60,237 nt of DNA from Gemmatimonadales bacterium (lineage in GTDB: Bacteria > Gemmatimonadota > Gemmatimonadetes > Gemmatimonadales > GWC2-71-9): NCBI GenBank assembly GCA_045803245.1, contig JBJMPK010000228.1, positions 1 through 60,237 on the forward strand. Direction: 5' to 3'. Made by a program: the position numbers and the translations under genes. A model generated the notes under the pieces. The model ran no database searches and was not told where the DNA came from. It was given only the letters and a program-made list of their open reading frames with translations. Shown one piece after another: positions 14,603-56,642 of this stretch. The stretch's first letter is position 1. Every line of letters starts with the position of its first letter.

Positions 14603-14683
14603 TATTGGCTATTGGCTGTGAGCTATTGGCTGATCGGTGCACGGAGTAGCCCATAGCCCATAGCTAATAGCTCTTAGCTATGC
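14603..14683. repeat. Inverted pair of heptamer arrays (TATTGGC)n / (GCCCATA, GCTAATA...)n
   Basis: Left arm 14603-14637: tattggc tattggc tgtgagc tattggc tgatcgg. Right arm 14649-14683: gcccata gcccata gctaata gctctta gctatgc. The arms are near reverse complements. The pair fills the OMP-helicase intergenic gap. Confidence 0.9.
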
Positions 14684-14689
14684 TTCACC

Positions 14690-17308
14690 ATGCACCCATC
14701 CCGCGACCACCACCTTCCTCCCGATCCCGATGCCTACCGCCACGCTCCCCATCCCAAGGGGCGCATCGTTGTCATCGCCCCGACTCGCGCCGCCTGCGAA
14801 ACGATCGAGCTGGCGCTGGGCACGCACGTGGATACGCTGCTCGAGCGGGAGCATGGGCCGGAGCTCCGGGAGTGGGCCGGCGAGGGGCGCGCGTTCGGCA
14901 TAGTCGCCGGGACCGGGACCGGAAAGACGCTGGGCATTCGCCCCATCGCGGAGGAGATCCTGCGGGAGCCGCTCCGGGTGGGAGTGGTCAACCGGGAGCG
15001 CGAGGCCACACCAGAGACGCCCACTTGGAACGTGGTGATCGTGACGACCGGCATTGCCCGGCGCTGGTTTCAGGACGATCTGATTTCCGGGCGGGACACG
15101 ATCATTGTCGACGAGATCCACCAGACCTCCGCGGAGTTGGAGCTTTGCCTTGCCCTCGGCAAGCGGGCGCGGAGCCGGTTCATCTGGCTCAGCGCGACGG
15201 TGGACCCGTCCTTTTATTCCCAGTATCTCGATAGCTCGAAGGTGCTCGTGACTCAGGCCTTCGACCCCGCCTTGAAGGCCAAGGTTCAGGTGCTTCCCCA
15301 GGTTCCGGAAGAGTTCCTGAACGAGCGTTATGTCCGTCATTTAATGAAGGAGAAGCGGGGCGTCGCAGTGTTCGTTCCTACCCGGGCCGAGGTGGAGAAG
15401 CTTGCCTCCGGCCTGGGGGAACAGTGGCCCCGTCTGACCACCGCCTTTTATCACGGTGGCGAGCCGATCCGCGTCATTCGTCCTTTCCTCGAGGACGAAG
15501 TCGACCGTCCCTTCCTGCTGGCCATGACGGCGGCGGGCCAGTCGGCCCTCAACGTGCGGGGGCTCGACACGGTCATCATCTACGATGCCCGCTACGGCAA
15601 CGTGGTGGATCGGGGCCGGAACGTGCTGCATCGCCTTTACCTTGGTGCCAACGAGATTCTCCAGATGGCCGGCCGGGTGCACGGGCGCGTCGCCAACGGT
15701 GAGGTGGTCATCCTCAGCGACCGCGATCTGGTTTTCGAAGCTCTCCGCCCCGGCCCACCCGAGTTTCAGCTGGCCGGCGACGCGGAGCGGGTGGCGATCA
15801 CCTGCGCCGCGCTCGGTGTCGACGCCCGGGACCTGGATCTGCCGGTGCCCCTCGATCGGATTGCCTATAGCCGTTCGATCGCCACCCTTACGAGCCGGGG
15901 GCTGATCGAGGGCGGAAAGCTGACCGCATATGGAAGAGAGGTCGAGGCGCTCCCGGTCGAGCGGCCCTGGGGTGAGCTGCTGGTTCACGCAGACGAAGAG
16001 TTGATTCCCATGGTAGCCGTCTGCTCCAACATCGAGTCGCTGCATCGTATGACTCGGGAGGAGCGGGACCTTCACGGGGTAATCGTAAACGGCAGCGACC
16101 ATCTGACGGCCTACAACCTGTACGCCGAGGCAGTGAATCAGCACGGTTACCTGGGCCAGGTGTACGGGCTGCCGCGGCATCTGTTCGAGGATGGCTTGGC
16201 TGAATGGGCCGAGCGGCGGGGTGTGCTGGTCAAAGCTATCGAGGACACCGCTCTAGGACTCGCGTCCGTTTACCGGTCGCTCGAGCTCCCCCTTCCCAAG
16301 CAGCTTCCCTACGCTTCAAAGGAGATCCGGCGCCGGTGGGCCGAGCTCATTGCCCGGATAATGCCGTTCGACCTGGTTATCGATGAGCACACCGCCGAAG
16401 GACAGGAAGCGAGAGTGTCCAAGACCTCGGTGGCTGGAAGTTGGGGCGCAGTGGCCGGGAACCTCCGGTACTTTGCCGACCGATTCGGGATCCCGCGAGC
16501 CTCAATAGAGGGCACCACACTTTCCTACGATCTGGTGCGGCAGCATGCCACGCTGGGACCACCCCAGGTAGTGCTGACCGGCCCGCGAAAGCACCAACGC
16601 CTGATGATCGAGCGGCGCCGGACGTACTTCGGCTTCGGTCTCGAAACGGAGCTCGAGCCCATCGACGGCGCGATTCCACCGGAGCTCCAGCCGGCTGCCC
16701 GCGATGTGCTGGCCGACGCCCTCATCGCCGGTGAAACGACCCACCCCGACCAGCAACGGATTCGCCGGACCCTGGCTGAGTTGGACGAGCTGTGGCGCCG
16801 CTCCGGCGGCACGTTGAAGGAGCTGTCCCCGGAGGCGCTTCGGGGCCAGGTTCGCCGGAAATTGAATGGCGGGACCAGCTGGGACGGCTTCCAGCGCACC
16901 CGGATCGTCCTCGACCCCGCTGAGCTGGTCGACCGAAGCACCCGCGAGAAGCTGGAAGCGCTGCCCGGGCGGGTTCACCTTCGTGGTGACGCCGTGCCGC
17001 TCGACTATGAGGTCGAGAATGGCCAGGGAGTGGCGCGAGTACGGCTCAGAGAAGGTCAGGCCAGGCGGCTCCGTCCGGATGAGCTTCCCCAACTGGACCG
17101 CCCGCTGCGCTTTGCCGTGCAACGGGGAAACCATCCGCCGCTGCTGGCCGACACGATTCCCGCTCTGCAAGCGCTGCTCCGCCGTGGACCCAGGGACGCC
17201 GCGGAGCATCACCCGGACCCCCGCAGGGACGGAGGCCGCCAGCGAAAGGGGCACCGCAGGGGGCGCATGCATGGAAGTAGCCGGCCGCGAGGCCGCCCCC
17301 GCCACTGA
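14690..17308 (+). CDS. DEAH-box (HrpA/HrpB-like) ATP-dependent helicase with Arg-rich C-terminal tail
   Basis: Motif I AGTGTGKT, motif II DEIH, motif VI QMAGRVHGR. 872 aa. Tail RRDGGRQRKGHRRGRMHGSSRPRGRPRH. Confidence 0.8.
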   Translation: MHPSRDHHLPPDPDAYRHAPHPKGRIVVIAPTRAACETIELALGTHVDTLLEREHGPELREWAGEGRAFGIVAGTGTGKTLGIRPIAEEILREPLRVGVVNREREATPETPTWNVVIVTTGIARRWFQDDLISGRDTIIVDEIHQTSAELELCLALGKRARSRFIWLSATVDPSFYSQYLDSSKVLVTQAFDPALKAKVQVLPQVPEEFLNERYVRHLMKEKRGVAVFVPTRAEVEKLASGLGEQWPRLTTAFYHGGEPIRVIRPFLEDEVDRPFLLAMTAAGQSALNVRGLDTVIIYDARYGNVVDRGRNVLHRLYLGANEILQMAGRVHGRVANGEVVILSDRDLVFEALRPGPPEFQLAGDAERVAITCAALGVDARDLDLPVPLDRIAYSRSIATLTSRGLIEGGKLTAYGREVEALPVERPWGELLVHADEELIPMVAVCSNIESLHRMTREERDLHGVIVNGSDHLTAYNLYAEAVNQHGYLGQVYGLPRHLFEDGLAEWAERRGVLVKAIEDTALGLASVYRSLELPLPKQLPYASKEIRRRWAELIARIMPFDLVIDEHTAEGQEARVSKTSVAGSWGAVAGNLRYFADRFGIPRASIEGTTLSYDLVRQHATLGPPQVVLTGPRKHQRLMIERRRTYFGFGLETELEPIDGAIPPELQPAARDVLADALIAGETTHPDQQRIRRTLAELDELWRRSGGTLKELSPEALRGQVRRKLNGGTSWDGFQRTRIVLDPAELVDRSTREKLEALPGRVHLRGDAVPLDYEVENGQGVARVRLREGQARRLRPDELPQLDRPLRFAVQRGNHPPLLADTIPALQALLRRGPRDAAEHHPDPRRDGGRQRKGHRRGRMHGSSRPRGRPRH

Positions 17309-17424
17309 CCCCATCCGCATCCGACGATCCATTGTGCACTCTTCCGGCAGGTGCACGTCTTGAATAGAGGACGGCACTCGGCCGTCGTGGAAACCATGGA
17401 GCCAGCCACCGCGTATCTTCAACT

Positions 17425-19526: not shown

Positions 19527-20756
19527 ATGGAGCACACCTATTTCCGCAAAGGTTTCGGCCTCAAGAACCAAATCGCCGGCCGGCTCACCGCCGATTATCA
19601 CAGCGCGGTGGTCGAGGCGTTCCGGGGCAATGATTATCGGCTCGTGGCCGGAGGCCTGACTTTCCGCCTGGCGCGCGAGTTCGGCTTCTGTTATGGGGTG
19701 GACCGGGCGGTCGAATACGCGTACGAAACCCGCACCAAGTTTCCTGAGCGGCGGATCTTCCTGGTTGGGGAGATCATCCACAATCCGCATGTGAATGAAA
19801 AGCTCCGCCACATGGGGATCACTCTTCTGGCGCACCACGCCGACAGGGAGTTCGATTTCAGTGTGGTCACGCCCGACGACGTGGTCATCATGCCCGCTTT
19901 TGGCGTGACAATCGGGGATTTTCAGCGGCTTCGGGGCATTGGCTGCATTCTGGTAGACACCACCTGCGGCTCGGTATTGAATGTTTGGAAGCGGGTCGAG
20001 AGCTACGCCAGAGATGGGTTCACCGCCATCATCCATGGGAAACACTATCACGAAGAAACCAAAGCCACCGCCAGCCAGGTCATGAAGTACCCCGGAGGCC
20101 GGTATCTGGTGGTCTTCGACATGGCCGAAGCTCGCAAGATCTGCGACTTCATTGAAGGGGGAAGCGATCTCGCCGGTCTCGAAGCCCGGTTCCGCCAGGC
20201 GGTCTCCCCCGGCTTCGATTTCTCCCGGGATCTGACCCACGTCGGCCTGGCCAATCAGACGACGATGCTGTCGGGCGAGTCGCTGGCCATCGCCGAGGAG
20301 GTACGGAAGAGCATCGTCCGCCGTTACGGCGCCGAAGTGCTCGACCAGCATTTCCGCTCGTTCGATACGATCTGTTCCGCCACTCAGGAGCGGCAGGACG
20401 CGGTGCTGGCGCTGCTGCGCGAGCCGCTCGACCTGATGATCGTCGTCGGGGGGTACAACTCCAGCAACACCTGCCACCTCGCGGCGTTAGTCCAGCAGCA
20501 TGGAGTCTCCGCCTTTCATATCGAAGACGCGGAGGGAATCGACGTCGCCACCGGTACCATCCGCCATCAGCCGATCGGGACCAAGAGCGAAGTGGTGGAG
20601 GAAGCCTGGTTGGGTAACGCGAAGGTCATCGGCATTACCGCCGGTGCTTCCACGCCGAACAACAAGGTGGGCGAGACTATCGCGCGGATCAGCGCGGTGG
20701 CGGGAGTGGAGGCGGAACTGGGCTCGGCATTAGAAGGCGCGAAAGGTGAACAGTGA
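19527..20756 (+). CDS. ispH: 4-hydroxy-3-methylbut-2-enyl diphosphate reductase, long (about 400-aa) form
   Basis: GFCYGVDRAV, VDTTCGSV, ANQTTM and ICSATQERQ motifs, including the three conserved Cys contexts of IspH/LytB. Confidence 0.9.
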   Translation: MEHTYFRKGFGLKNQIAGRLTADYHSAVVEAFRGNDYRLVAGGLTFRLAREFGFCYGVDRAVEYAYETRTKFPERRIFLVGEIIHNPHVNEKLRHMGITLLAHHADREFDFSVVTPDDVVIMPAFGVTIGDFQRLRGIGCILVDTTCGSVLNVWKRVESYARDGFTAIIHGKHYHEETKATASQVMKYPGGRYLVVFDMAEARKICDFIEGGSDLAGLEARFRQAVSPGFDFSRDLTHVGLANQTTMLSGESLAIAEEVRKSIVRRYGAEVLDQHFRSFDTICSATQERQDAVLALLREPLDLMIVVGGYNSSNTCHLAALVQQHGVSAFHIEDAEGIDVATGTIRHQPIGTKSEVVEEAWLGNAKVIGITAGASTPNNKVGETIARISAVAGVEAELGSALEGAKGEQ

Positions 20757-20766
20757 ACGGTAAACA
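20746..20766. repeat. Heptamer array gtgaaca gtgaacg gtaaaca
   Basis: Three 7-nt units. The ispH stop TGA (20754-20756) lies inside the second unit. The array ends 6 nt before the next ATG. Confidence 0.85.
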
Positions 20767-24532: not shown

Positions 24533-25018
24533 ATGATAGCTAGCCCTTGGATCCGGACCGTGGCGCTGATACCTCTGCTCGGCTGCACCCCACTGGGATT
24601 CTGGGTGTATGGCGACCCGGTGGTGAGCGTTTCCCGGGTTACGCTACGACTCGAGCGCCTGAGATACCGGGGGGAATCGCCTGTCGTGGTGGCCCTCGCG
24701 GTGGAGAATCCCAACGATTACGCGCTATCCAGCGAGCGAGTCGAGCTTTCCCTCCGGCTCGACGGCGTGCCCATCGGGAAACTCAGGCGGGACAGTACGG
24801 TGCCGGTCGAGATGGCAGCGGTCTCAACCCTGGCGTTGGCCGTGCCGTTGGAGAAGCAGGCCACTCCCGAGCATCTGGCGGCGCTGGGCTCGGGCACCCA
24901 CAGCTTCGCGGTGCGGGGACGCGCTACCTTCCGGACTCCATTTGGGATGCGAAAGGTGCGTTTTGAACAAGAAGGCGCGATGAAATTCGGCGGGCGAATC
25001 ACCGATTCAGTGCCGTAG
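24533..25018 (+). CDS. LEA type-2 (NDR1/HIN1-like) domain lipoprotein
   Basis: Signal and lipobox ALIPLLGC. Beta-sandwich LEA_2-like pattern (VALAVENPNDYALSSERVELSLRLDGVPIG). 12-nt convergent overlap with the dnaE2 3' end. Confidence 0.55.
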   Translation: MIASPWIRTVALIPLLGCTPLGFWVYGDPVVSVSRVTLRLERLRYRGESPVVVALAVENPNDYALSSERVELSLRLDGVPIGKLRRDSTVPVEMAAVSTLALAVPLEKQATPEHLAALGSGTHSFAVRGRATFRTPFGMRKVRFEQEGAMKFGGRITDSVP

Positions 25019-28000
25019 TCTGGCCTGGACTCGTTCCAGGCGATCCAGCCGGGTAATAGTAAGGGTCACCACTCCAAACTCCTGCTCCACCTTTCCTCGA
25101 AAGATGAACGGTCCCTGGTCGAACAAGACGTGGCCGCGTTCCCGATAGATCCGGGGGAAGAGTACCGCCTCGATCAGTCCGTGACCATCATCGAAGGTGG
25201 CAAACTCCATCGGCTCCTCGTTCTGCGTGTGTACCGGCTTGGCGGTCGTGAGCATGCCGGCCGCCAGGATATGCCGGCCCACGTGACGGTGCAGATCGGT
25301 GCTTCGGCACAGACGAAGCCGCCGGATATGATCGGCGTGGAGCTGCATCGGATGCGCATCGGTCATGAACCCCAGCGCTTGGTACTCTTCCCTGCGGCGG
25401 CGCTCGGGGGAGTACTCCTTGAGAGTTGGAACCGCAGCAGGTAGTTGACTGAACCAATCGTCCAATGGAGCTTCGGCCCCTTCGCTGCACTCAGGGTGAC
25501 AATCAACAGACTCGTCTCTAAACCGCCCCGCCGCCCCGCCGCCCCGCTGCCCCGCTGAATCCACCATCCACAGCATCATCGGCCGGGTCCACCCCTGCGC
25601 GATCGAATCGAGGGCGCCGACCTTGATCAGAAGACGCAGATCTGATGGAGCGATGCCGGTGCGCGCCCGGAAGTCGAAGATGCTTTGGTACGGATGCGAA
25701 GGTGCACGGTCGGTCCAGCCGTCCGCCCGTCCGCCCGTCCGCCCGTCCACCCGCGCAGCGAACACCCGCTCCACCGCGTCCGCCGACAGCCCCTTCACGA
25801 ACTGCAATCCAATCCGGATCTCTTTCCCCTGACCGGTGCAACGGAACTCACTGGCGTTGACATCAGGCGGGAGGATGGTGAGGCCCATCCGCATGGCTTC
25901 CGCTATATACGCGAACGGCTGATAAAACCCACCACCGTTCGACAGCACCGCCGCCATGAACTCCGCCGGATGATTGGCCCGGAGAGCGCAGGCATGCTGC
26001 GCGATCTGGATATAGGAGCACGAGTGTCCTTTGCAGAAGCTGTACCCCGCAAACGACATGATCATCTCCCAGACCTGCTTGGCCGCATCCGGAGCGCGGC
26101 CCAGACGCGCTGCCCCGGCGAAGAATTCCTCCGCATACGCGGCGAGGTGCTTAGTCGGGCGCTTCTTGGAAAGCGCCTTGCGGAGCCCATCGCCTGTGGC
26201 AGGCGACATTCCGGCAAACGTGGCACAGACGTTCACCACGTCCTCCTGGTACACCATGATCCCGAACGATTCGAGGAGGGTGTCCCGCAGCGATGGATCG
26301 AGCGGCTGGTACGGCTGTTTGTTGCGCAGTCGCTCGAGGTAGATGTGTATGTACTTGTTCGACGCCGGACGGATCATGCTGGTATTGAGGACCAGCAGCT
26401 CGAAGGTATCCGCCTGGCTTCTGGCGCAGAGGAGGCGGGAGGCCGGAGATTCGGTGTAAAAAACCCCCATGGTTTGGCCGGTGCGGAACAGAGCCTTGGC
26501 TCCCTCGTCCTCGCCCGCCTCCGCTGAGGTGTAGTCAATGCGATGACTTGTGTTCCCATGCACCGCCGCGATGGCGTCGCGAATCACTGCCAGCGACCGA
26601 TTTCCCAGGAGATCGATCTTCACCAGCCCGGCATCCTCGGTGCCGTCTTTCTCGAACTGAATGACCGGCACCTGGAGATCGGGATCGTCGCTCAGCTGCT
26701 TGGCCGCGGGCTCCACCGGTACGTAATCGGTGAGCGGCGTCGGCGTGATCACCACCCCCCCGGCATGGACCGACAAGTGACGCGGGATGCCAACCAGACT
26801 CTCGGCAGACCGGGCATACTCCTGCCAGGCGGCCGGCAGGCTGAGTCCCCGAAAGTTGGGATGACTCGCCACTAAATCCGGTAGCCGCGCGCCGGTCTCA
26901 TAGAAAAAGGGGATACGCCGCGTCACCTCCCGAATCTCGCCGGCCGGGCGGCCATGCACCTTGGCCACCTCCCGGAGAGCTCCGCGGGGCTGAAAGGTGT
27001 TGTGGTTGGCCACCATGGCAGCATGCAACCGGGGATACCGGCGAAACACGTACGCCAGCACCTTATCCCGCTCGTCCCAGGGAAAATCCAGATCGATATC
27101 GGGCGGGTCACGCCGCTCGAGATTGAGAAAACGCTCGAAGACGAGCTTGGATCCGATCGGGTCCACGTGCGTGATGCCGAGACAGTAGCTTACGACCGAA
27201 TTGGCGACCGAGCCTCGCCCGCAGTGAGTGGGGCCGTTCCGGACAATGTCACGAACCACCAGGAAGTAGTCGGCAAAACCCTTCTGAGCGATGACCCCGA
27301 GCTCCAGGTCGAGCCGCTGCTGCAGCTCCCGGGTGATGACGGGATAGCGCCATCGAGCGCCATCGAGGGTCAAGCCGCGGAGCTGATCGAAGGCACCCGC
27401 GGTGTCGGCCATACGAGGCGGCACGATACGGTTTCCGACCGGAATCTGATAGCGGCATCGCTCCGCGATCTGGGCCGCGGCGAGAATGGCCTCGGGACAA
27501 TCGGGGAAGTGGCGCGCCAGGTCGGGGGTGGAGCAGAGCCAGGCACCGGTGGGCCAGACTGCTTCGGACGGTAGCGCCGATAGCGTGGTGTTCAACGCAA
27601 TGGCGCGAAGCAGGCGGTGTCGGCTCCACTGCTCCGCCTGCGCCGCCACGACGCCGTTGGTGGCGACAACCGGCAGCCGGAGCCGGCGTGCCGCGGCGAG
27701 CACCGCGTGTCGCTCGCGTCCGGGCCGGAGCTCCGCGTAGAGATTCTCCGGGCCACTCAGGCGGAGAACCTGCTCCAGGAAACCCGGGTTGCGCGAGAGA
27801 AGGATGAGGCCATCGCGGTCGTGCGCGAGGAGGGAGGGCAGGCGGACGGGCGTCCGCCAGTGAATTGCGGTGATCGCTCGACACAAGGCCGCCCACCCGC
27901 ATTCATTGGACGCTAATGCCACCACTTCCTGGTCATCTACGACGAGATGGGCCCCCAGTATGGGCCGTACACCAACAGCGGCACAGGCGCGCTGAAACTC

Positions 28001-28138
28001 CACCGCGCCATAGACGCCGTTGGTGTCGGTGCAGGCGAGGGCAGGGAACCCCTGGCTGGCCGCTGCCTCAGCCAGAGCCTCGGGACTCGAGACGCCGATG
28101 CCGAAGGAGAAGTGGGAGTGGACGTGAAGGTGGATCAT
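25007..28138 (-). CDS. dnaE2: Error-prone DNA polymerase III alpha homologue (DnaE2/ImuC)
   Basis: PHP-domain start MIHLHVHSHFSF (Met11 of the track ORF). Pol III alpha core (GRGSVANSVVSYCLGIT, DIDLDF). About 1040 aa, no tau/beta-binding C-terminal extension, OB-fold C-terminus. Confidence 0.85.
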   Translation of the reverse strand: MIHLHVHSHFSFGIGVSSPEALAEAAASQGFPALACTDTNGVYGAVEFQRACAAVGVRPILGAHLVVDDQEVVALASNECGWAALCRAITAIHWRTPVRLPSLLAHDRDGLILLSRNPGFLEQVLRLSGPENLYAELRPGRERHAVLAAARRLRLPVVATNGVVAAQAEQWSRHRLLRAIALNTTLSALPSEAVWPTGAWLCSTPDLARHFPDCPEAILAAAQIAERCRYQIPVGNRIVPPRMADTAGAFDQLRGLTLDGARWRYPVITRELQQRLDLELGVIAQKGFADYFLVVRDIVRNGPTHCGRGSVANSVVSYCLGITHVDPIGSKLVFERFLNLERRDPPDIDLDFPWDERDKVLAYVFRRYPRLHAAMVANHNTFQPRGALREVAKVHGRPAGEIREVTRRIPFFYETGARLPDLVASHPNFRGLSLPAAWQEYARSAESLVGIPRHLSVHAGGVVITPTPLTDYVPVEPAAKQLSDDPDLQVPVIQFEKDGTEDAGLVKIDLLGNRSLAVIRDAIAAVHGNTSHRIDYTSAEAGEDEGAKALFRTGQTMGVFYTESPASRLLCARSQADTFELLVLNTSMIRPASNKYIHIYLERLRNKQPYQPLDPSLRDTLLESFGIMVYQEDVVNVCATFAGMSPATGDGLRKALSKKRPTKHLAAYAEEFFAGAARLGRAPDAAKQVWEMIMSFAGYSFCKGHSCSYIQIAQHACALRANHPAEFMAAVLSNGGGFYQPFAYIAEAMRMGLTILPPDVNASEFRCTGQGKEIRIGLQFVKGLSADAVERVFAARVDGRTGGRADGWTDRAPSHPYQSIFDFRARTGIAPSDLRLLIKVGALDSIAQGWTRPMMLWMVDSAGQRGGGAAGRFRDESVDCHPECSEGAEAPLDDWFSQLPAAVPTLKEYSPERRRREEYQALGFMTDAHPMQLHADHIRRLRLCRSTDLHRHVGRHILAAGMLTTAKPVHTQNEEPMEFATFDDGHGLIEAVLFPRIYRERGHVLFDQGPFIFRGKVEQEFGVVTLTITRLDRLERVQARLRH
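25523..25554. repeat. Octamer array ccgccccg x3 + ctgccccg inside dnaE2
   Basis: Four 8-nt units read directly. They encode SAGQRGGGAAGRF in the dnaE2 frame. Confidence 0.9.
25719..25750. repeat. Octamer array ccgtccgc x3 + ccgtccac inside dnaE2
   Basis: Four 8-nt units read directly. They encode DGRTGGRADGWTDR in the dnaE2 frame. Confidence 0.9.
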
Positions 28139-28148
28139 ACCCAACAGC

Positions 28149-28193
28149 GTGAGCGGGAAAAGACACAACGTGAGCGGTGAGCGGCCCGCTCAC
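28149..28193. repeat. Composite GTGAGCG element with terminal hairpin
   Basis: gtgagcg (28149-55), 14-nt spacer, gtgagcg gtgagcg (28170-83), gcc, cgctcac (28187-93). The last two units form a 7-bp hairpin. Lies between the hydrolase stop and the dnaE2 start. Confidence 0.85.
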
Positions 28194-28199
28194 GCTGTG

Positions 28200-28997
28200 T
28201 CACTTCCCGCTCAGGCTGTCCAGAAACTCATCGAGTATTCGGTTGAATTCATCCGGCTTGTCCAGCTGGATCCAGTGGCCCGTTCCGGCCACCACGCGGT
28301 GGGGGAATCCGTTTCCCAGACGATGGAGGCTGAACGCCTGATCGTTATATGGTGTGACCACCGATAGCTTGGGCCCTTGGTACCGGGCCAGCGAGGAATC
28401 GGGGTCGAACTGCATCACACTCCGGAGGACCGGCAGAACTGTTTCCCGGGGGGTGGCCCGGAGATCTGCGAGGAGCCGGCTTCGGACCGTGCTGTCGGGT
28501 CCGGCTATTTCAGTCCAATACTTCTGGCTCCCGCGGTCGTAGTCCAACTCGAACCCTTCCAGAAACGACTGGATATCGGACGGGGGAATCGCCTTGCTGT
28601 CTCCAATGGGATCCACCAGCAGAAGCCCAGCCACACGGCCCGGATGGTTGCCGGCATACACCAGCGCGGCGCCCCCACCCATACTGTGGCCTACCAGGAC
28701 GAACTGCTGAAGGCCGAGAGAGTTGGCCACCGCGCTGACATCACTGGCCATGGCATCGATTGAATAGTCTCCGTTTCTGGCCGGCTCAGACCGGCCGTGT
28801 CCCCGGAAATCGAAGGCGATGGCGCGGCGCTGTGGCCGCAAGCGCTCCAGCTGCGCCTTCCACTGCCTTGTGTTGCCCGCCACAGAATGCACCAACACGA
28901 CCGGCAAATCTCCCCCTAGCTCGGCAGGGGGACCGCCGTCGTCGACGACCAGGGTTCCTGCCGGACCTACGACCCGAATACCCCGCTCACCGCTCAC
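28200..28997 (-). CDS. Alpha/beta-fold hydrolase
   Basis: 265 aa. HSVAGN oxyanion region, nucleophile elbow GHSMGG, C-terminal His context GTGHW. The proposed GTG start lies within a repeat unit. Confidence 0.8.
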   Translation of the reverse strand: MSGERGIRVVGPAGTLVVDDGGPPAELGGDLPVVLVHSVAGNTRQWKAQLERLRPQRRAIAFDFRGHGRSEPARNGDYSIDAMASDVSAVANSLGLQQFVLVGHSMGGGAALVYAGNHPGRVAGLLLVDPIGDSKAIPPSDIQSFLEGFELDYDRGSQKYWTEIAGPDSTVRSRLLADLRATPRETVLPVLRSVMQFDPDSSLARYQGPKLSVVTPYNDQAFSLHRLGNGFPHRVVAGTGHWIQLDKPDEFNRILDEFLDSLSGK

Positions 28998-29018
28998 GCT
29001 TTTCTCTCCCGCTTACGC
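28984..29018. repeat. Heptamer array cgctcac cgctcac + degenerate units
   Basis: Covers the tag stop (TGA, 28987-89 on minus) and the hydrolase GTG start (28995-97). Confidence 0.85.
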
Positions 29019-29553
29019 TTTGGTACGACCAGGCAGGCCGCTGCTTCAGGATCGACGGATACACGGGACAGCGCTTCACATGGGCCCCAGGCAGATACCC
29101 GATGCTCATGAGAAACTCGCCTACAATCTCGCCGCCGGTAAAGCGAAACGTTTGCTTGAAGAGCTTGACCCACTCTTCCTTCGAGCGAGGATGATGCGCG
29201 GCCAGCCACGCGGCGAAGGAGCGGTGCGTTTTCCGAAGCTCGAGAATGCGCTGGGCATTGGCGATAGCGGCGTCGACCTTGAGCCGGTTGCGAATGATCC
29301 CCGCATCGGCCAACAGCCGCTTGCGGTCGGCAGCGCCATAGCAGGCTACGATGTCGGGATCGAATCCATCGTAGGCCCGCCGGAACGCCTCCCGCTTCTT
29401 GAGAATGGTGAGCCAGGAGAGACCGGCCTGATTGATTTCCAGCACCAACCGCTCGAACAGCGCCGAGTCATCCTCGAGCGGGAAGCCGTACTCGTGATCG
29501 TGGTAGGGTCCGTGCCACTCATGACCTGGTGCGGCATCGCAGTAGGTGGTCAT
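28987..29553 (-). CDS. tag: DNA-3-methyladenine glycosylase I
   Basis: HDHEYGFP, LFE.L.LE..QAGLSW..IL.KR..FR and FRFTGGEIVGEFLMSIG match the Tag family. The tail SVSGREKRER is repeat-encoded. Confidence 0.9.
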   Translation of the reverse strand: MTTYCDAAPGHEWHGPYHDHEYGFPLEDDSALFERLVLEINQAGLSWLTILKKREAFRRAYDGFDPDIVACYGAADRKRLLADAGIIRNRLKVDAAIANAQRILELRKTHRSFAAWLAAHHPRSKEEWVKLFKQTFRFTGGEIVGEFLMSIGYLPGAHVKRCPVYPSILKQRPAWSYQSVSGREKRER

Positions 29554-29555
29554 AG

Positions 29556-29658
29556 TATTGGCTATTCGCTAAGGGCTGTTGGCAAAGCTATATGTAGCAG
29601 ATATCTCATTGTTCGCGCTGTAGCCAATAGCCAATAGCCAATAGCCAATAGCCAACAT
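29556..29658. repeat. Inverted pair of heptamer arrays (TATTGGC-like x4) ... (CCAATAG x4 + ccaacat)
   Basis: Left arm 29556-29583: tattggc tattcgc taagggc tgttggc. Right arm 29624-29658: four perfect ccaatag units running into the qor ATG (29657). Fills the divergent tag/qor intergenic region. Confidence 0.9.
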
Positions 29659-30634
29659 GCGTGCTGTGATCTACGAGGGAGCAGGAGGCCCCGAAGTCAT
29701 CACCATCGGCGAAGTGCCCAAGCCCGAAGTGGGCAAGGAGCACATCAGGGTAAAGGTTCACGCCGCGGGATTGAACCGGGCCGACTTGATTCAGCGGCGG
29801 GGCCACTACGCGGCGCCGCACGGCTGGCCGGCGAACATCCCGGGCCTCGAATACGCCGGCGAAGTCGAAGCGGTCCGTCCCGGCGTGACTCGCTGGAAGG
29901 TGGGCGACCGGGTGATGGGACTCGTTGGCGGAGGTGCCCAGGCGGAATTTGTCGTCGTGCACCAGGATGAGGTGTTTCCCATTCCGGCGGGATTGACGTA
30001 TCAGGAAGCTGCGGCGATTCCCGAGGCATTTCTCACTGCCTATGATGCCCTGGTAACTCGGGGCCGGCTCCAGTCGGGTGAGCGAGTGGTGATCCACGCC
30101 GCCGGAAGCGGGGTGGGGACCGCCGCCTCGCAGGTGGCCAAGCAGCTCGGCGCCACGGTGCTCGGAACATCCCGCAGCGGCGACAAGCTGGCCCGGGCTC
30201 TGGTCTATGGCCTCGACGTCGGGATCGACGTTAGCCGGACGCCTTTTCGCGACGCAGTCGGCGAGCCCGTCGATGTGATTCTCGACGTACTCGGCGGACC
30301 CGCCTTTGCCGACAACCTGGCGGTGCTCGCGCAGCGGGGGCGGCTGGTCCTGCTGGGTTTCCTGGCCGGCAGCCGGACCGAAGCTGACCTGGGACCGCTT
30401 CTCGGGAAGAGACTCGAGGTCATCGGCACCGTCATGAGGACTCGTGGTCATGAGGAACGAGTTGCACTGGTCCGCGAGTTCAGTCAGCGAATGCTGCCGC
30501 TGTTCGAGCCCCGCGAGGGAGGGGCAACTCTCCGTCCAGTCCTGGAGCGAAGCTATCCGATGACTCAACTGGCGGAGGCGCATCGGGTTCTCGAGGATAA
30601 CGCCAGCTTCGGAAAGATCGTCGTCGTCTGGTGA
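29657..30634 (+). CDS. qor: NAD(P)H:quinone oxidoreductase (zeta-crystallin/MDR family)
   Basis: 325 aa. MDR pattern: N-terminal GroES-like part, Rossmann motif VVIHAAGSGVGTAA, C-terminal FGKIVV. Confidence 0.8.
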   Translation: MRAVIYEGAGGPEVITIGEVPKPEVGKEHIRVKVHAAGLNRADLIQRRGHYAAPHGWPANIPGLEYAGEVEAVRPGVTRWKVGDRVMGLVGGGAQAEFVVVHQDEVFPIPAGLTYQEAAAIPEAFLTAYDALVTRGRLQSGERVVIHAAGSGVGTAASQVAKQLGATVLGTSRSGDKLARALVYGLDVGIDVSRTPFRDAVGEPVDVILDVLGGPAFADNLAVLAQRGRLVLLGFLAGSRTEADLGPLLGKRLEVIGTVMRTRGHEERVALVREFSQRMLPLFEPREGGATLRPVLERSYPMTQLAEAHRVLEDNASFGKIVVVW

Positions 30635-31926: not shown

Positions 31927-32015
31927 GTGAACAGTAAACGGTGAACGGTGAACAGGATTGATGTCAGGGATTTTCGTGGAATCCCCCTGTTAACTGTTCA
32001 CCGTTCACGGTTCAC
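31927..32015. repeat. 89-bp imperfect palindrome of GTGAACR heptamers with inner hairpin
   Basis: Left arm 31927-31954: gtgaaca gtaaacg gtgaacg gtgaaca. Right arm 31988-32015: tgttaac tgttcac cgttcac ggttcac. Inner stem GGGATT (31967-72) / AATCCC (31980-85). Lies between the VOC stop and the imuB start. Confidence 0.9.
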
Positions 32016-37776: not shown

Positions 37777-38295
37777 TCAACCGACGACTGTGGGTGTGGC
37801 CTCTATCAGCCACCGCTCGGGGTCGAGTCGGACTTCCTGGGGCGAGCGGGTCACGATACCTGATCCGACGGTCCTCTGGGGCTGATCCGGCTGGGATGTG
37901 AACTCGAGAAGGTAGAGTGTCGGCCCGGCGTTCCGGGCATGCTCGGCCACGAAGCCGGCCAGCGCCTCAGGCCAACCGGACGAGGGTACCGGCCGGGGTA
38001 ATGGCCCTCGCCGATGGCGCTCCAGCGCCTGGATGATCTCGGTGCGGGAGAGCTTCGATCGACCATACCGGGCTCGCAAGTCCCGCTCGTCCTGGATTGG
38101 GTCGGCGTGACGAAGCCGGAACAGGTCGCAGGAACAGGCCCCAACCAGCAGCTGCGCCACGGTGCGGGCGCTGGGGTGGAGCCGGTGGAGGGCAGCCCGA
38201 TGGCTGGGAGCGAGGTCGGCGGTAAGCCCTGGCGGCAGCATCGACCGAACCTCGCTCAGGGTGAGCGGGCTGGCCAGGTATAGGAAGTAGCACAT
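37777..38295 (-). CDS. Hypothetical protein (no domain recognised)
   Basis: The ORF has coding-like composition. The start is set at Met23 (ATG 38295) because the longer start (38361) lies in the centre of a repeat palindrome. Confidence 0.4.
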   Translation of the reverse strand: MCYFLYLASPLTLSEVRSMLPPGLTADLAPSHRAALHRLHPSARTVAQLLVGACSCDLFRLRHADPIQDERDLRARYGRSKLSRTEIIQALERHRRGPLPRPVPSSGWPEALAGFVAEHARNAGPTLYLLEFTSQPDQPQRTVGSGIVTRSPQEVRLDPERWLIEATPTVVG

Positions 38296-38340
38296 CGGAA
38301 AGGGCGGCTGATACTTTCGTCCGAGAAGGTCGAAAGCCGA

Positions 38341-38389
38341 GGGTCTAGAGTCTAGTTGCATGACCCTAGACCCTTGACCCTAGACCCTC
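38341..38389. repeat. Inverted pair of heptamer arrays (gggtcta gagtcta) / (gacccta gaccctt gacccta gaccctc)
   Basis: Read directly; the units contain CTAG. Lies between the GroES-like stop (38392) and the next gene. Confidence 0.9.
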
Positions 38390-42625: not shown

Positions 42626-42662
42626 CAACTACTCACCGTTCACGCTCTTTACCGGAGTACCT

Positions 42663-43674: not shown

Positions 43675-43683
43675 GGCGCTGCG

Positions 43684-43704
43684 CCAATAGCCAATAGCCA
43701 CCCA
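43684..43704. repeat. Heptamer array ccaatag ccaatag ccaccca
   Basis: Read directly. Ends 2 nt before the ctaG ATG (43707). Confidence 0.8.
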
Positions 43705-44897: not shown

Positions 44898-45599
44898 CTA
44901 GGGGTGGGGCGAGAGTCGCTGAGCCGCGAGCTCTTGGGGTCTCGCGCGCCGGTCGGCCCATCCGGCCAGCACCGCCAGCACCAGGATCAATAGAATATCG
45001 CTCGCGGCCACAACCGTCATGCTGGGTGGCAACGGACCATAGGTGGCGGCGAAGTAGGTGCCGAGCAGCACCAGCACCACCACGGCGAGTCGTGCGATGC
45101 GAACCGGGTGGCGGTGCGACTTCAGCGTTGTGTACAGCGCCAGCCCGATGCCGAATACTAAAAGCTCGGCGACCACCGTTGCCGTGGGGTTGTTCCACAG
45201 CCCGAGCCCGATTTTGGGTGAGTCGTTGCCCAGGATCGGCAGGTCACGGACATGAACCAGTACGTCGAGCGGGTAGTGTGAGAACACTGCCACCGCCACG
45301 ATGGCGGAAGCCTGCCAGTGCCGAGTCGTGTCCCGCGTGGGCCAGGAGTAGTAGGCCGCCGCGGCTACGACGCTCCACGCGAACACGCCGATCAGACTAT
45401 GGGAGATGGGATAGTCGATGAACTCGAATGGTGTGACCGCTGTGGCGCCCGGAACGATCCTCGCGTGCTCCCACCCGAGCAGCACAAAAATTCCCCACAA
45501 CAGATCGGCCAGCTGAGCCGCAACGAACAGGGTACCGAGCGACAGCTTAGGCTCGGCGCGCTTCAAGGCGAAGGCAATACCGTAGTGGCCTAGGAACAT
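44898..45599 (-). CDS. Integral membrane protein, possibly YdjM/DUF457-like metal-dependent hydrolase
   Basis: 233 aa, about 7 hydrophobic segments, conserved His residues (MFLGHYG, PISHSL, FSHYPLD). The family assignment is tentative. Confidence 0.5.
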   Translation of the reverse strand: MFLGHYGIAFALKRAEPKLSLGTLFVAAQLADLLWGIFVLLGWEHARIVPGATAVTPFEFIDYPISHSLIGVFAWSVVAAAAYYSWPTRDTTRHWQASAIVAVAVFSHYPLDVLVHVRDLPILGNDSPKIGLGLWNNPTATVVAELLVFGIGLALYTTLKSHRHPVRIARLAVVVLVLLGTYFAATYGPLPPSMTVVAASDILLILVLAVLAGWADRRARPQELAAQRLSPHP

Positions 45600-45603
45600 G
45601 GCA

Positions 45604-45643
45604 GGGAAGCGGGGAAGCGGGGAAGCGGGGAAGCGGGAAGTAG
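45604..45643. repeat. Octamer array gggaagcg x4 + ggaagtag
   Basis: Four perfect 8-nt units immediately upstream of the start codon at 45599 (minus-strand gene). Confidence 0.95.
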
Positions 45644-45748
45644 ACGATCGGCCCTCTTCACGAGACCTCCATTCGGCTGTTGGACTCCAGCAACTCGGGG
45701 GAGAACATACGCCAATGTGCGGCCTGCGCCAATGAACGTCGCTGCTCT

Positions 45749-46594
45749 CTACTTCCCCGCCTCCCCGCTTCCCCGCTTACCCACTACCCCGCCTCCCAGC
45801 CAGGCCCCGCCATCCACCACCATGATCGCACCGGTAATCCACTCTCCGGCTGGGCTGGCCAGGTAAGTCACCATCTGGCCGATGTCCTCGGGCCGTCCCC
45901 AGCGGCCCAGCGGGATCGAGTCGGCGGCGTACCTCTCCATTCCGAACAGATCCGGCCCCGCGCTGCCGGAAGGGGTAAAGGCTTTCTTCACACCCTCGGT
46001 GGGGATCGGACCGGGCGCCACGGCGTTGACTGTGATGCGATCTGGAGCCCACTCGAGCGCCAGGGTTCGCGTGAGCGCATCCACGCCGGCCTTGGCAGCA
46101 GTGGCGTGCGCCATCAGCGGCCAGCCGCGGTAGTGCAGCGTCATCGAGATCGAGACGATGCGGCCGGCGCCTTGCGCCTTCATGACGGGATAGACCGCCT
46201 GGCTGCAATAAAAGGTGCCGTATAGGTCGGTTTCGATTACCGCTTTCCATCCGTTGGAAGAGAGCGTGGCAGTGGGTGCATAGAAGTTTCCGGCGGCGTT
46301 GTTGACCAGGATGTCCAGCCGGCCGTGCTCTTGTGCCACCCGGTCCACCATGCGTGACACCGATTCCGGCTCTCGTACGTTGACTTCAATGGCGCTCACC
46401 TTGGCTCCGCTCGCGCGCAGCTGCTCCGCCGCCGGGGCGAGATGCTCCGGCTTGCGGCTTGCGATGGCCACCGACGCTCCCGCCCGCGCCAGTGACGACG
46501 CGATGCCCAGGCCTATGCCAGTCCCCCCACCCGTGATCAGGGCTACCTGGCCCGCCAGCACATCCGGCCGGAAGACGCTGGCCGGTTGGCTCAC
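45749..46594 (-). CDS. Short-chain dehydrogenase/reductase (2,4-dienoyl-CoA/enoyl-CoA reductase-like)
   Basis: ITGGGTGIG cofactor motif and an SDR core. 4-nt overlap with the upstream crotonase gene. Confidence 0.8.
   Translation of the reverse strand: MSQPASVFRPDVLAGQVALITGGGTGIGLGIASSLARAGASVAIASRKPEHLAPAAEQLRASGAKVSAIEVNVREPESVSRMVDRVAQEHGRLDILVNNAAGNFYAPTATLSSNGWKAVIETDLYGTFYCSQAVYPVMKAQGAGRIVSISMTLHYRGWPLMAHATAAKAGVDALTRTLALEWAPDRITVNAVAPGPIPTEGVKKAFTPSGSAGPDLFGMERYAADSIPLGRWGRPEDIGQMVTYLASPAGEWITGAIMVVDGGAWLGGGVVGKRGSGEAGK
45752..45797. repeat. Octamer array cttccccg cctccccg cttccccg cttaccca ctaccccg (reverse complement of the 45604 array)
   Basis: Read directly. Overlaps the last 15 codons of the SDR gene (GGVVGKRGSGEAGK*). 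Confidence 0.9.
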
Positions 46595-52088: not shown

Positions 52089-52093
52089 TTGGA

Positions 52094-52765
52094 ATGATAG
52101 TCAAATCTGTTATCGTCTTCGGACTGGTCGCTGCACTCTCCAGTTGCGAGCAGCCGCGAAAGGAACTTGCGGCGGGGACCGAGCCTTCGGCTGAGAAGTC
52201 CGGCCTGCCCACGGTTCTCTTTCTGGGCACCAGTCTCACCGCCGGATTGGGTATCGACCCCGACCAGGCCTATCCCGCGCTGATCCAGCAAAAGATCGAT
52301 TCTGCGGCTCTCAGGTATCGGGTCGTCAACGCAGGCGTCAGCGGAGAGACCTCGGCGGGAGCGCTCCGGCGGACCGATTGGCTCTTCCGGCAGCCGGTAT
52401 CGGTTCTCGTGGTTGAAACCGGTGCCAACGACGGCCTGCGAGGCTTACCGGCCGACACTCTCCGCGCCAACATTCAGGGCATCTTCGACCGGGCCAAACG
52501 GCTTCAACCCCGGCCCAAGCTCGTGCTGCTGGGCATGCGAGTGCCGCCGAATTACGGCAAGGCCTACAGCCAGCGGTTCCAAGCGGTGTACCAGGAGCTG
52601 GCTCGGGCAAACGCTGCCGCTCTGGTACCGTTTCTGCTCGAAGGTGTGGGCGGGATTCCCTCCCTGAATCAACCGGACGGCATTCATCCTACGGCGGCGG
52701 GACAGCGAAAGTTGGCCGAGACGGTATGGCGGGTGCTGGAGCCGGTCCTACGAGAAAAACCGTGA
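52094..52765 (+). CDS. SGNH/GDSL hydrolase (TesA/arylesterase-like), secreted or lipoprotein
   Basis: Block I LFLGTSLTAG (Ser nucleophile), block III ETGANDGLRG, block V DGIHP. Divergent from the ABC pair, as in the tesA-ybbA-ybbP arrangement known from E. coli. Confidence 0.8.
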   Translation: MIVKSVIVFGLVAALSSCEQPRKELAAGTEPSAEKSGLPTVLFLGTSLTAGLGIDPDQAYPALIQQKIDSAALRYRVVNAGVSGETSAGALRRTDWLFRQPVSVLVVETGANDGLRGLPADTLRANIQGIFDRAKRLQPRPKLVLLGMRVPPNYGKAYSQRFQAVYQELARANAAALVPFLLEGVGGIPSLNQPDGIHPTAAGQRKLAETVWRVLEPVLREKP

Positions 52766-52797
52766 GCGGGAACTGCAAACAGCGTGAGCGGTAAGCG
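52762..52797. repeat. Composite GTGAGCG element (gtgagcg, 15-nt spacer, gtgagcg gtaagcg)
   Basis: Near-copy of the 28149-28183 element. The tesA-like stop TGA (52763-65) lies inside the first unit. Confidence 0.85.
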
Positions 52798-52810
52798 GAA
52801 TAAACCGATG

Positions 52811-54651: not shown

Positions 54652-54733
54652 TGGCGCCCTTGGTGGTAGTGAATGGTATTTTGTATACAATATTCCACGA
54701 CGCGCGTCAACCCATTACTCCCTTGGAGGATCC

Positions 54734-55636: not shown

Positions 55637-55637
55637 C

Positions 55638-56066
55638 TTATTCGAGTTTCGCATCCAGATCGAACTGGACGTTACCCTGCAGTGCCCCCGACACGGGGCA
55701 ACCCTTCTTGGCATCCTCCGCGGCCTTGGCGAACCCGCCCTGGTCCATCCCCGGGACCTTACCCCTCACCTCGAGTCGCATTCGGGTAATCTTGAAGCCG
55801 TCGCCGGCCTTCTCGATGGTGCATGAAGCCTTGGTCGCGATGCGGGTAGCCGGCGTACCACTCTTTTCCAACCCAGCGGACAACGCCATGCTGAGACAGG
55901 CGGCGTGGGCCGCCGCCAGGAGCTCCTCGGGATTGGTGCCCGTCGCGCCCTCGAAGCGGGTACGGAACGAGTAATCTCCCTCGAATGCACCGGAGCCGGC
56001 CTTGAAGTGACCCCGGCCGGCCCGGAGGCCGCCCTCCCACACTGCATTTGCGCTGCTGGTCGGCAT
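55638..56066 (-). CDS. osmC: OsmC-family peroxiredoxin
   Basis: 142 aa. TNPEELLAAAHAACLSMAL and KGCPVS carry the two conserved Cys contexts of OsmC. Confidence 0.85.
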   Translation of the reverse strand: MPTSSANAVWEGGLRAGRGHFKAGSGAFEGDYSFRTRFEGATGTNPEELLAAAHAACLSMALSAGLEKSGTPATRIATKASCTIEKAGDGFKITRMRLEVRGKVPGMDQGGFAKAAEDAKKGCPVSGALQGNVQFDLDAKLE

Positions 56067-56092
56067 GATTCTCTCCTGGATGTTTTGAATTC

Positions 56093-56581
56093 TCAGACGC
56101 TCCGAGCGGCGACCGGTACCGGGACCTGATTCAGGCCCAGCCAGTACCTACCAATAGCCTGTATGGCTGCCCGGAACTCCTCGTGTCGGACTGGTTTCTG
56201 AACGCAGCTATTGGCGCCGAGCTGGTAGCATTGAGCCAGCTCGCGGGGATCGTTGGATGAGGTAAGGACAACGACTGGCGCCATGCTGGTGCGGGCGTTG
56301 GCCCGCAGGGCACCGAGAACCTCTAAGCCGTCCACCTTGGGGAGCTTGAGGTTCAACAGCACCAGCCGGGGCACCGGCGCCCCGGAACGATGTCGAAAGG
56401 CGCCCCGGCCAAGAAGAAAGTCCAGCGCCTCCTCACCATCACGAACCACTTCTATCCGGCCGTCGGGATACAGCTCATGAAGCGGCTTGACTGTGAGCTC
56501 TACATCCAGCGCACTATCCTCGACCAGGAGGATGTCGGTAGGCAGCGCGACAGCGGGTAAGCGGGTAAGTTCGGCGCTCAC
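56093..56581 (-). CDS. Stand-alone CheY-like response regulator
   Basis: ILLVEDS, LVLLNLKLPKVDG and VQKP are receiver hallmarks. GTG start in a GTGA overlap with the kinase stop. Confidence 0.8.
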   Translation of the reverse strand: MSAELTRLPAVALPTDILLVEDSALDVELTVKPLHELYPDGRIEVVRDGEEALDFLLGRGAFRHRSGAPVPRLVLLNLKLPKVDGLEVLGALRANARTSMAPVVVLTSSNDPRELAQCYQLGANSCVQKPVRHEEFRAAIQAIGRYWLGLNQVPVPVAARSV

Positions 56582-56642
56582 GACGATGATGCGCCGTTAC
56601 TACCCACCTGCTTCCCCGCTTCCCCGCCGACCCGCTTACCTG
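56553..56642. repeat. Inverted octamer arrays (gcgggtaa x2) ... (cttccccg x2, ccgacccg, cttacctg) spanning the kinase/regulator junction
   Basis: Left arm 56553-56568, within the regulator 5' codons. Right arm 56611-56642, within the kinase 3' codons (AAAGKRVGGEAGKQVG). Confidence 0.85.

Follow-up and report, generated by a model that had tools for sequence, protein, structure and literature searches.

The 60,237-nt contig JBJMPK010000228.1 of an uncultured Gemmatimonadales bacterium from soil (GenBank assembly GCA_045803245.1), which in its full length is called the window here, contains numerous arrays of directly abutting 7- or 8-nt units that lie between genes, across gene borders, and inside genes such as those for a DnaE2-like and an ImuB-like protein. 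At nine loci, a G-rich tandem 7-/8-nt array is followed by a loop and then by its reverse-complement C-rich array, an arrangement that we call an inverted pair. With some reserve, we regard the arrays as a lineage-wide class of self-complementary minisatellites.

Results

In the window, Tandem Repeats Finder (TRF) listed 24 rows with a period of 7 or 8 nt, and TRF together with a position check found the respective repeat at every array that a first-pass annotation of this DNA had listed. Exact runs number five for period 7 and seven for period 8 in the window, as compared with 0.15 and 0.1 in dinucleotide shuffles, and the remaining periods from 2 to 20 gave 0–2 exact runs each. Taken together with 14 close relatives (loci L001–L012, L029, and L031; GC 0.62–0.65; syntenic with window positions 19–42 kb at a DNA identity of ~70–80%), the sequence amounts to 260 kb and holds 41 period-7 and 58 period-8 arrays. 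The control periods 5, 6, 9, 10, and 11 yielded 4, 6, 4, 0, and 0 arrays in the same set, and its shuffles contained no period-7 and no period-8 array. Measured against shuffled controls in this set, periods 7 and 8 alone are thus enriched. The local density is 4–20 period-7/8 arrays per 10 kb in the 14 syntenic loci, and 0–2 per 10 kb in most remoter Gemmatimonadota and other phyla. Longer pairs with 7–10 units per arm (GTGAGAG, GGTGTTG) occur at four loci of more distant Gemmatimonadota (L034, L038, L039, and L041), and octamer pairs, with the more G-rich consensus unit first, are found at three Desulfuromonadales loci. The possibility of an assembly artefact, which had been raised before, could be excluded, since independent assemblies, short-read ones among them, show the arrays at orthologous sites, and the contigs come from several independent projects. 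Exact-protein look-ups found no same-species contigs in which copy-number heterogeneity could be seen; the ADH-like protein encoded at 29657–30634 is 81–87% identical to proteins of uncultured Gemmatimonadales metagenome-assembled genomes.

The inverted pairs begin at positions 14600, 28144, 29556, 30720, 31927, 33346, 38325, 45599, and 56545, and the earlier count of at least six loci at which an array faces its reverse complement is thereby exceeded. Each of the eight longest rows in the inverted-repeat list of the window is an array pair, and they come from six loci. The arms comprise 2.5–6 units from at least 12 families, and the loops have 8–140 nt. As each G-rich arm is followed by its reverse complement, any single strand, be it DNA or RNA, folds into a stem, and these stems have 25–44 bp with ~85% Watson–Crick pairs. 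Folding of eight pairs gave z-scores from −4.45 to −9.97, with 0 of 200 dinucleotide shuffles folding as well, so that the long hairpins that had been thought possible are strongly predicted. Homology of loops was found only between orthologous loci, and none between different loci.

Six of the pairs take up the interval from a stop codon to the next start codon. At 14600–14685, a GGCTATT arm and a CCAATAG/CCCATAG arm (RNA fold −40.4 kcal/mol, z −4.45) occupy the gap between a PD40/Omp85-like stop (14596) and a helicase-like start (14690). The GTGAGCG-family pair at 28144–28219 has 34-nt arms (−61.3 kcal/mol, z −9.97) and lies between a hydrolase stop (28200) and the DnaE2 start (28138), and the GTGAACG-family pair at 31927–32015 (z −7.02) is bounded by a glyoxalase-like stop at 32005 and by the start of ImuB at 31911, with a terminator-like TTTTTT following the stem on the minus strand. 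One arm of the GGGTCTA/GACCCTA pair at 38325–38389 (z −7.10) fills the gap to a Cpn10-like stop (38392). The ATG (38359–38361) of the unannotated minus-strand gene 37777–38361, which has no Pfam match, is inside the loop of this hairpin, and the first codons of that gene form the 3′ arm. At 56545–56651, a pair of GCGGGTAA and GGGGAAGC units (z −5.43) spans the overlap of a histidine-kinase stop and a response-regulator start (56578–56581). The sixth of these pairs, an octamer pair of the GGGGAAGC family at 45599–45802, has arms that reach 42 nt and an intervening loop of ~118 nt; its fold of −124.9 kcal/mol was compared with mononucleotide shuffles only (z −9.1). One of its arms encodes the C-terminal tail of an SDR protein, and the other abuts the start of a YdjM-like gene (45599). 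The loop of the SDR/YdjM pair contains an upstream open reading frame (ORF) of 23 codons on the minus strand (45590–45661) with a GGAGG Shine–Dalgarno (SD) sequence and a GTG start, which reads through the C-rich arm and ends with a TAG stop that overlaps the main ATG (ATGTTCCTAG). ORFs in the same frame are present in the loops of L082, L083, L086, L098, L100, L102, and L104, with an SD-like sequence upstream in most of them. Because the SDR and YdjM genes are 1 nt apart in array-less relatives, the loop ORF looks like restored translational coupling.

A seventh pair outside genes has a different setting. At 29556–29655, a degenerate TATTGGC arm and five perfect TAGCCAA units (z −6.85) are placed between the divergent starts of a glycosylase gene (29553) and the ADH-like gene (29657). 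The loop contains the conserved motif CATTGTTC at 29607. This motif (window 29601–29615; variants TTATTGTT and AATGTTGTA) is kept at the glycosylase/ADH junction whatever the unit family, also in L003, L004, L008, L010, L012, L013, L019, L021, and L027, and it may be a promoter or operator element.

The notion that the arrays lie mostly at gene borders had to be narrowed. Among 102 arrays of the window and the close relatives, 49 are in the ~14% of the sequence without a coding call, and for these the description holds, but 53 are inside called ORFs, many of them in frame. The two unit lengths differ in this respect, with 47 octamer arrays in ORFs versus 10 intergenic ones, and 6 heptamer arrays in ORFs versus 35 intergenic ones. 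Nearly all heptamers contain a stop triplet; the octamers consist of G and C alone, have a GCGG core in most cases, and are free of stops. ORFs therefore necessarily read through GC-only octamers, and some coding calls, such as the 5′ region of a radical-SAM gene, may in fact be leaders. In this radical-SAM region, a short CTGTCCGC/CCGTCCGC array was found by repeat scan at 33147–33170 (minus strand), and an inverted octamer pair (GGCAGCGG / GCTGCCCC; z −5.44) lies at 33346–33450, in the 5′ part of the ORF or its leader; its array at 33346–33371, the partner of 33417–33450, had been missed before. The second window pair inside an ORF is that of the ImuB-like gene. It belongs to the GGACGGTC / GTCCGTCC family (30720–30823, minus strand, z −5.30), and the ORF reads through it in frame as QLELW-GGRTDGRTGGQAMGDLAVTSSDRPTVRPS-ALQHALDRIRDRYG, between the conserved QLELW and ALQHALDRIRDRYG. 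In an alignment of seven species, the conserved ImuB flanks share one frame, and the insert between them varies in its length and in the family of its units; AAIRADR is followed by another variable site. The DnaE2-like protein, likewise aligned from seven species, has three variable in-frame insertion sites. Two of them are hypervariable and carry, on the minus strand and according to the alignment, octamer arrays in the window: CCGCCCCG as read on the plus strand, G-rich in the sense of the gene, at 25523–25557 (translated in frame as ...SAGQRGGGAAGRF...), and CCGTCCGC as read on the plus strand at 25719–25753 (in frame as ...VDGRTGGRADGWTD...). These two arrays are not complementary to each other. 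At DnaE2 site 1, comparison with the relatives identified the one-unit palindrome GGCGGACG-GG-CGTCCGCC at 27841–27858.

The reading frame is kept through the arrays in 7/7 aligned species for ImuB and in 7/7 for DnaE2. Short tandem units can change their copy number, and the unit numbers do differ between relatives, as would be expected of phase-variation (contingency) switches, but the frame is preserved through differing array lengths and the genes concerned are housekeeping genes, and we rejected a contingency locus. Together with chance, for which the array-free shuffles leave no room, and with the artefact dismissed above on account of the recurrence at orthologous sites, such switches are a hardly credible explanation.

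Some further observations concern these genes. Past its conserved C-terminal motif, the ImuB-like ORF is not closed by a stop but reads through the minus strand of the GTGAGCG array at 30631–30666, and its tail (30565–30634, minus strand) overlaps the 3′ end of the ADH-like gene in antisense over 70 nt; a conserved tail, TTIFPKVALPSRTRCASAS, is present in all seven species (the window, L002, L004, L007, L009, L010, and L011). In the region 25007–31911, the dnaE2-like gene does not adjoin the imuB-like gene, as an alpha/beta hydrolase gene, a methyladenine glycosylase gene, and the ADH-like gene lie between them; no imuA-like gene was recognized in this region, and the gene upstream of imuB is glyoxalase-like. 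L001, L002, L008, and L012 have a different in-frame insert of 100–115 nt at DnaE2 site 1 (corresponding to window 27816–27864). Its ends are inverted and non-tandem (GCGGATCCCGGACGGGCGTGCC ... GGCATGCCCGTCCGGGCGGAGC), its interior is shared, and it looks like a second kind of palindromic insert.

The comparison of orthologous sites shows how the arrays change. DnaE2 site 1 has the one-unit palindrome in the window and in L007, and 3–4 units per arm with a 17–60-nt loop in L009, L010, and L004. The unit at ImuB site 1 matches the local codons, as RADR is accompanied by GGCGGACN units and KAGR by GGCGGGAA units. At the SDR/YdjM junction, for which 44 orthologous metagenome junctions were compared, the ancestral GCGGGTGGGAGG...TGAcATG, with the stop 1 nt from the start, is replaced by G-rich arms alone or by full pairs, and the series runs from array-less junctions over a G-rich arm alone to pairs with loops of 45–120 nt. 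L098 and L102 have near-identical loops there and differ by whole units, with a GGGGCAGC versus GGGACAGC variant mirrored in both arms. In L005, L006, and L008, the C-terminal coding segment of ImuB sits between the arms. An asymmetric pair in L011 (9916–9985), with ~10 GACTCCT units upstream of the ADH start and ~3 AGCTGGG units opposite, indicates that the arms can expand independently.

Comparison of occupied with empty sites revealed no target-site duplications. A miniature inverted-repeat transposable element was rejected for this reason, and also because the interiors are unrelated and the arms can flank conserved host coding sequence. An origin of the G-rich arms from SD sequences as seeds was rejected as well; it fits the SDR junction but predicts the reversed arm order at divergent junctions.

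The arrays could not be assigned to a known class by direct searches. CRISPR repeats have ~23–50 nt and are separated by unique spacers of similar length; with directly abutting units of 7–8 nt, the arrays are not CRISPR, as had been recognized from the sequence alone. Pfam searches with the ~57 ORFs of the window bore out that no transposase is encoded, and they gave no RAYT, integrase, or reverse transcriptase either. Rfam had 0 matches at gathering score on either strand of the window, and nothing in the scans for tRNA/tmRNA and canonical promoters or terminators coincides with the arrays. A scan of 26–46 kb for intrinsic terminators returned none of the pairs, and a T6 after the stem is present only at 31927–32015. 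We found no reports on Gemmatimonadota-specific repeats in the literature.

The remaining arrays of the window are single. A short GTGAACA/GTGAACG array on the plus strand (20746–20766, by repeat scan) spans the LytB/IspH stop (20756) and the 16-nt gap to the next start (20773), and a CGCTCAC/CGCTTAC array on the minus strand (28983–29018, by repeat scan) is located at the overlap of the glycosylase stop (28987) with the hydrolase start (28997). On the plus strand, four GTGAGCG units (30631–30666) follow directly 3′ of the ADH-like stop (30634), a weak C-rich array (CTCACCG TTCACGC; 42630–42650) lies between a COX1 stop and a COX3 start, 2.6 GCCAATA units (43683–43704) end a few nucleotides upstream of a CtaG start (43707), and GTGAGCG/GTAAGCG units (52762–52797) lie in the convergent gap between a GDSL lipase stop (52765) and an aminotransferase stop (52811). 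Unlike the remainder of the window, positions 1–14.4 kb are free of 7/8-nt arrays. In this part, a tightly packed cluster for tetrahydromethanopterin-linked C1 metabolism (234–11187, minus strand) encodes Fae, Mpt_N/Mtd-like, Mch, FTR, ATP-grasp, and DUF1464 proteins together with GXGXG and amidohydrolase subunits of the formyltransferase/hydrolase complex.

Discussion

Whole units are gained and lost in place, short palindromes or local G-rich seeds serve as starting points, and the arrays sit where extra sequence is tolerated, which is in intergenic gaps and, in frame, in disordered protein linkers. We assign a probability of about 40% to the explanation that slippage and fold-back copying build them up in place and that they are tolerated on account of their folding on themselves. 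The graded series, the differences by whole units, the unrelated loops, and the lack of a transposase in the window favor such growth in place. According to this model, replication slippage would extend an array, and the second arm would be made, and kept matched to the first, by intrastrand template switching, in which the strand folds back and is copied. The persistence of the elements could then be due to the hairpin, which folds the insert out of the way: in an operon mRNA, the base of the stem would keep the upstream stop and the downstream start together, and at the protein level, the insert would become a low-complexity loop. Some copies may secondarily have come into use as RNA stem-loops for 3′-end protection, termination, or processing, and others as G-poor leaders just upstream of start codons. 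Our probabilities for the individual explanations are not mutually exclusive, as growth in place and secondary use can coexist.

Several results weigh against the slippage model. About 12 unit families (among them GGCTATT, GTGAGCG, GTGAACG, GGGGAAGC, GGGGCAGC, and GGACGGGC) recur at many unlinked loci and in most of the genomes, although slippage and drift should let the units diverge, and the model leaves this recurring set, as well as the 5′ position of the G-rich arm, unexplained. The unit family differs among species at orthologous junctions, and the two arms of a pair always belong to the same family. At the glycosylase/ADH junction, seven families occur in 16 species (GGCTATT, GGGAGCT with a GACTCCT variant, CACGAAGG, CACGAAA, CACAGAGG, CACGGAGG, and GGTGTTG) in a constant order of start codon, G-rich arm, loop, C-rich arm, and start codon, which looks like replacement rather than gradual change. 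Comparable turnover is seen at the junctions 28139, 31912, and 38341 and at the ImuB site. Furthermore, the complementarity of an arm to its partner at the same locus is 0.84, and that to same-family arms elsewhere is 0.83, so that the constraint acts on the family consensus. An excess due to co-evolution of the arms at individual loci is thus not detected, and mirrored changes are limited to single examples (L098/L102, and CACGAAGG/CACAGAGG/CACGGAGG at one junction). At the level of RNA, stem mismatches of the G-U and A-C types, counted relative to the sense strand, number 65 and 51 and show no clear bias, and at divergent promoters a transcript probably carries only one arm, in which case an RNA hairpin cannot be the common function.

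A sequence-specific component is indicated by the conserved vocabulary, by families that switch at fixed sites, and by the nearly equal complementarity values. It could be a trans-acting system that writes or maintains the arrays, with the unit families as recognition or template sequences; candidates are a REP/RAYT-like single-strand DNA enzyme, another mobilizing activity, or homology-driven copying, and the polarity would reflect end processing. Such a system would account for a vocabulary that is shared by many loci and by genomes with a DNA divergence of ~25%, for family switching at one orthologous junction, for the constraint on families rather than loci, and for the use of one family at unlinked junctions of the same genome, as exemplified by GGGAGCT at three loci in L002. 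The near-absolute polarity resembles that of terminal inverted repeats, and in Geobacter metallireducens, insertion sequence elements lie at a constant spacing from analogous paired sites (PMC2700814). However, the 60 kb contain no gene for a transposase, RAYT, or reverse transcriptase, different loci share no common loop, target-site duplications were not seen, the arms can flank conserved host sequence such as the ImuB C-terminus in L005, L006, and L008, and one site shows a graded series from one to four units. We consider this trans-acting system somewhat unlikely, yet a serious competitor of growth in place.

The polarity itself has no basis in simple slippage and adds to the objections. 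Of 61 pairs, 56 have the G-rich arm 5′ of the C-rich arm, three are exceptions, two of which have loops of >130 nt, and two are ties; the G-rich arm is also 5′ in 13 of 14 pairs from independent metagenome loci. The rule holds inside ORFs as well as at co-directional and divergent junctions. Since an inverted pair is identical on both strands, the polarity belongs to the pair and not to the orientation of a gene, and we found no strand-symmetric selective reason for it that would also cover the intragenic pairs. For the single intragenic arrays, an early impression of an orientation bias was dropped, as 13 are G-rich and 10 are C-rich in the sense of the gene. An idea that we regard as improbable, but that would explain the polarity, the unit length of 7–8 nt, and the small conserved vocabulary together, is a dedicated, sequence-specific machinery that extends DNA 3′ ends, at breaks, gaps, or hairpins, by G-rich 7–8-nt repeats. 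Such a machinery could be templated in a telomerase-like manner, or it could be a single-strand DNA enzyme with few templates; the extension of two facing 3′ ends would result in pairs with the G-rich arm first, and the same process could underlie the convergent arrays of Xanthomonas and Geobacter.

A polarity that is strand-symmetric in every context is also easier to reconcile with a mechanistic cause, or one at the level of DNA, than with one tied to gene orientation, and the conservation of pairs at the divergent promoter, where an RNA hairpin is unlikely, is in agreement with this. The arrays might thus act as DNA, as cruciforms or G-quadruplex/hairpin switches taking up supercoils at gene borders, as nucleoid-protein sites of the kind suggested for Geobacter, or as Chi-like recombination signals, whose units would face the loop so that a cut hairpin is quickly repaired. 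Some families have G3–4 tracts (GGGGAAGC, GGGGCAGC, GGGTCTA), and many units include AGCGG or GAAGCGG, which serve as Chi in Bacillus subtilis and Staphylococcus aureus. Yet AGCGG has no strand skew outside the arrays (130 AGCGG versus 134 CCGCT), for which reason the Chi-like variant was rejected, several families have neither G tracts nor a GCGG core (GGCTATT, GTGAACA), and the diversity of the units argues against a single DNA-binding protein. Direct action as DNA is very improbable.

It is unlikely, too, that the arrays are selected cis-regulatory elements, be it as RNA stems for RNase III processing, 3′-end stabilization, termination, or cistron insulation or as C-rich and G-poor leaders for initiation that is SD-independent or assisted by S1 or cold-shock-domain proteins, with the unit sequences as binding registers for an RNA- or single-strand DNA-binding protein. 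Orthologous junctions are highly occupied despite the turnover of families, which speaks for a function at these sites. With 25–44 bp, the stems are of a size that suits RNase III substrates, a T6 comes after the GTGAACG pair, and the SD-bearing loop ORF leads through the C-rich arm to the main start in eight related loci. Arrays that adjoin start codons are C-rich in the sense of the gene at a ratio of 25:1, and many of these genes have no SD sequence, but the bias is entailed by the polarity of the pairs and hence is no independent evidence. Moreover, pairs are also found in coding sequences and at divergent promoters, with one arm per transcript, a clear excess of G-U mismatches in the sense strand is not seen, most pairs lack a T-run and escape the canonical terminator scan, and the genes concerned are unrelated housekeeping genes. 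A similar regulatory proposal exists for the TAACTGA repeats of Beggiatoaceae, Cyanobacteria, and Bacteroidetes, which may bind S1, Csp, or CsrA (MacGregor 2015, PMC4679880), and these differ from the arrays described here in being almost exclusively direct (one inverted in 170), in having a single unit, and in being AT-rich (PMC4679880).

The first-pass annotation named the STRR repeats and REP/BIME elements as the closest analogues, but the defining features of both are absent here, and the pairs of Xanthomonas and Geobacter come closer. The STRR sequences of heterocystous cyanobacteria are tandem heptamers (CCCCAGT, TTGGTCA, CAACAGT) and, like the arrays of the window, comprise several families per genome and are mostly intergenic. 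The units here are others (GGCTATT, GTGAGCG, GTGAACG, GGGAGCT, and more), they occur in a different phylum, and they are accompanied by 58 period-8 arrays; to our knowledge, neither octamers nor an in-frame class in coding sequences has been described for STRR. In the RNase P RNA gene, a helix is lengthened by STRR arrays, which would be a parallel to hairpin arrays in functional genes, and for the G-rich heptamers of Nostoc, few inverted pairs have been reported, unlike here. REP, BIME, and REPIN elements share with our arrays that they are abundant extragenic inverted doublets that form long hairpins in genome-specific families, and they act as RNA stabilizers or terminators. A REP unit is an imperfect palindrome of 20–40 nt with a 5′ GTAG-type motif, REPINs have conserved spacers, and the associated transposases are RAYTs. 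In contrast, the arms here are direct tandem 7/8-mers without an internal palindrome or a consistent GTAG motif, the loops are unrelated between loci, and the window encodes no RAYT. Rickettsia palindromic elements are likewise palindromic insertions that are translated in frame at permissive sites of protein-coding genes, but they are dispersed 100–150-nt copies of a single sequence, not tandem, and do not grow unit by unit.

In Xanthomonas, tandem G-rich heptamers are strongly over-represented between genes, with some in coding regions (Rehm et al. 2015, PMC4692102), and 70–75 cases per genome have a plus-strand array facing a minus-strand array in an arrangement called "convergent", which is the same G-rich-arm-first arrangement as found here; these pairs are kept at orthologous positions between species and differ in length (PMC4692102). 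The differences are that one unit dominates there, whereas at least a dozen 7- and 8-nt families are present here, that families switch at orthologous sites here and 7-mers are mostly intergenic and 8-mers mostly intragenic, that the GGGAATC/GGGNATC unit of Xanthomonas, with its G-quadruplex potential, was not found here, where only some units are prone to form G-quadruplexes, and that the phylum is another. Geobacter metallireducens has sites of 3–5 tandem 7–9-nt units, mostly as two opposite-strand sites at variable distance, in several lineage-specific classes per genome, between as well as inside genes (Aklujkar et al. 2009, PMC2700814). Their unit sequences are unrelated to those described here, and they were read as "global regulator sites" of the IHF/HU type, with ISGme8/9 at a fixed distance (PMC2700814). 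The inverted pairs of Xanthomonas and Geobacter were thus described earlier, without a mechanism.

The exclusive 7/8 periodicity, the shared architecture, and an arm polarity that holds across families and species indicate a common generating or selecting mechanism, as had been suspected for the arrays of the window. Over-representation of heptamers in bacteria has been noted since 2007. What is new here is the multi-family vocabulary of 7- and 8-nt units, the split into intergenic heptamers and intragenic octamers, the turnover of families at orthologous sites, the quantified polarity rule, and the in-frame colonization of dnaE2 and imuB. In practical terms, the arrays will mislead gene callers, as ORFs run through GC-only octamers, and will break short-read assemblies. 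Any mechanism has to obey the rules that units have 7 or 8 nt only, that the G-rich arm is 5′, that both arms are of the same family, and that the family is replaceable at a fixed site. With its many families, its syntenic genomes at graded distances, and its range from a one-unit palindrome to 40-bp stems, the lineage provides a comparative system in which such mechanisms can be addressed, and the in-frame insertions in the mutasome genes dnaE2 and imuB imply that the arrays reshape proteins as well as intergenic space.

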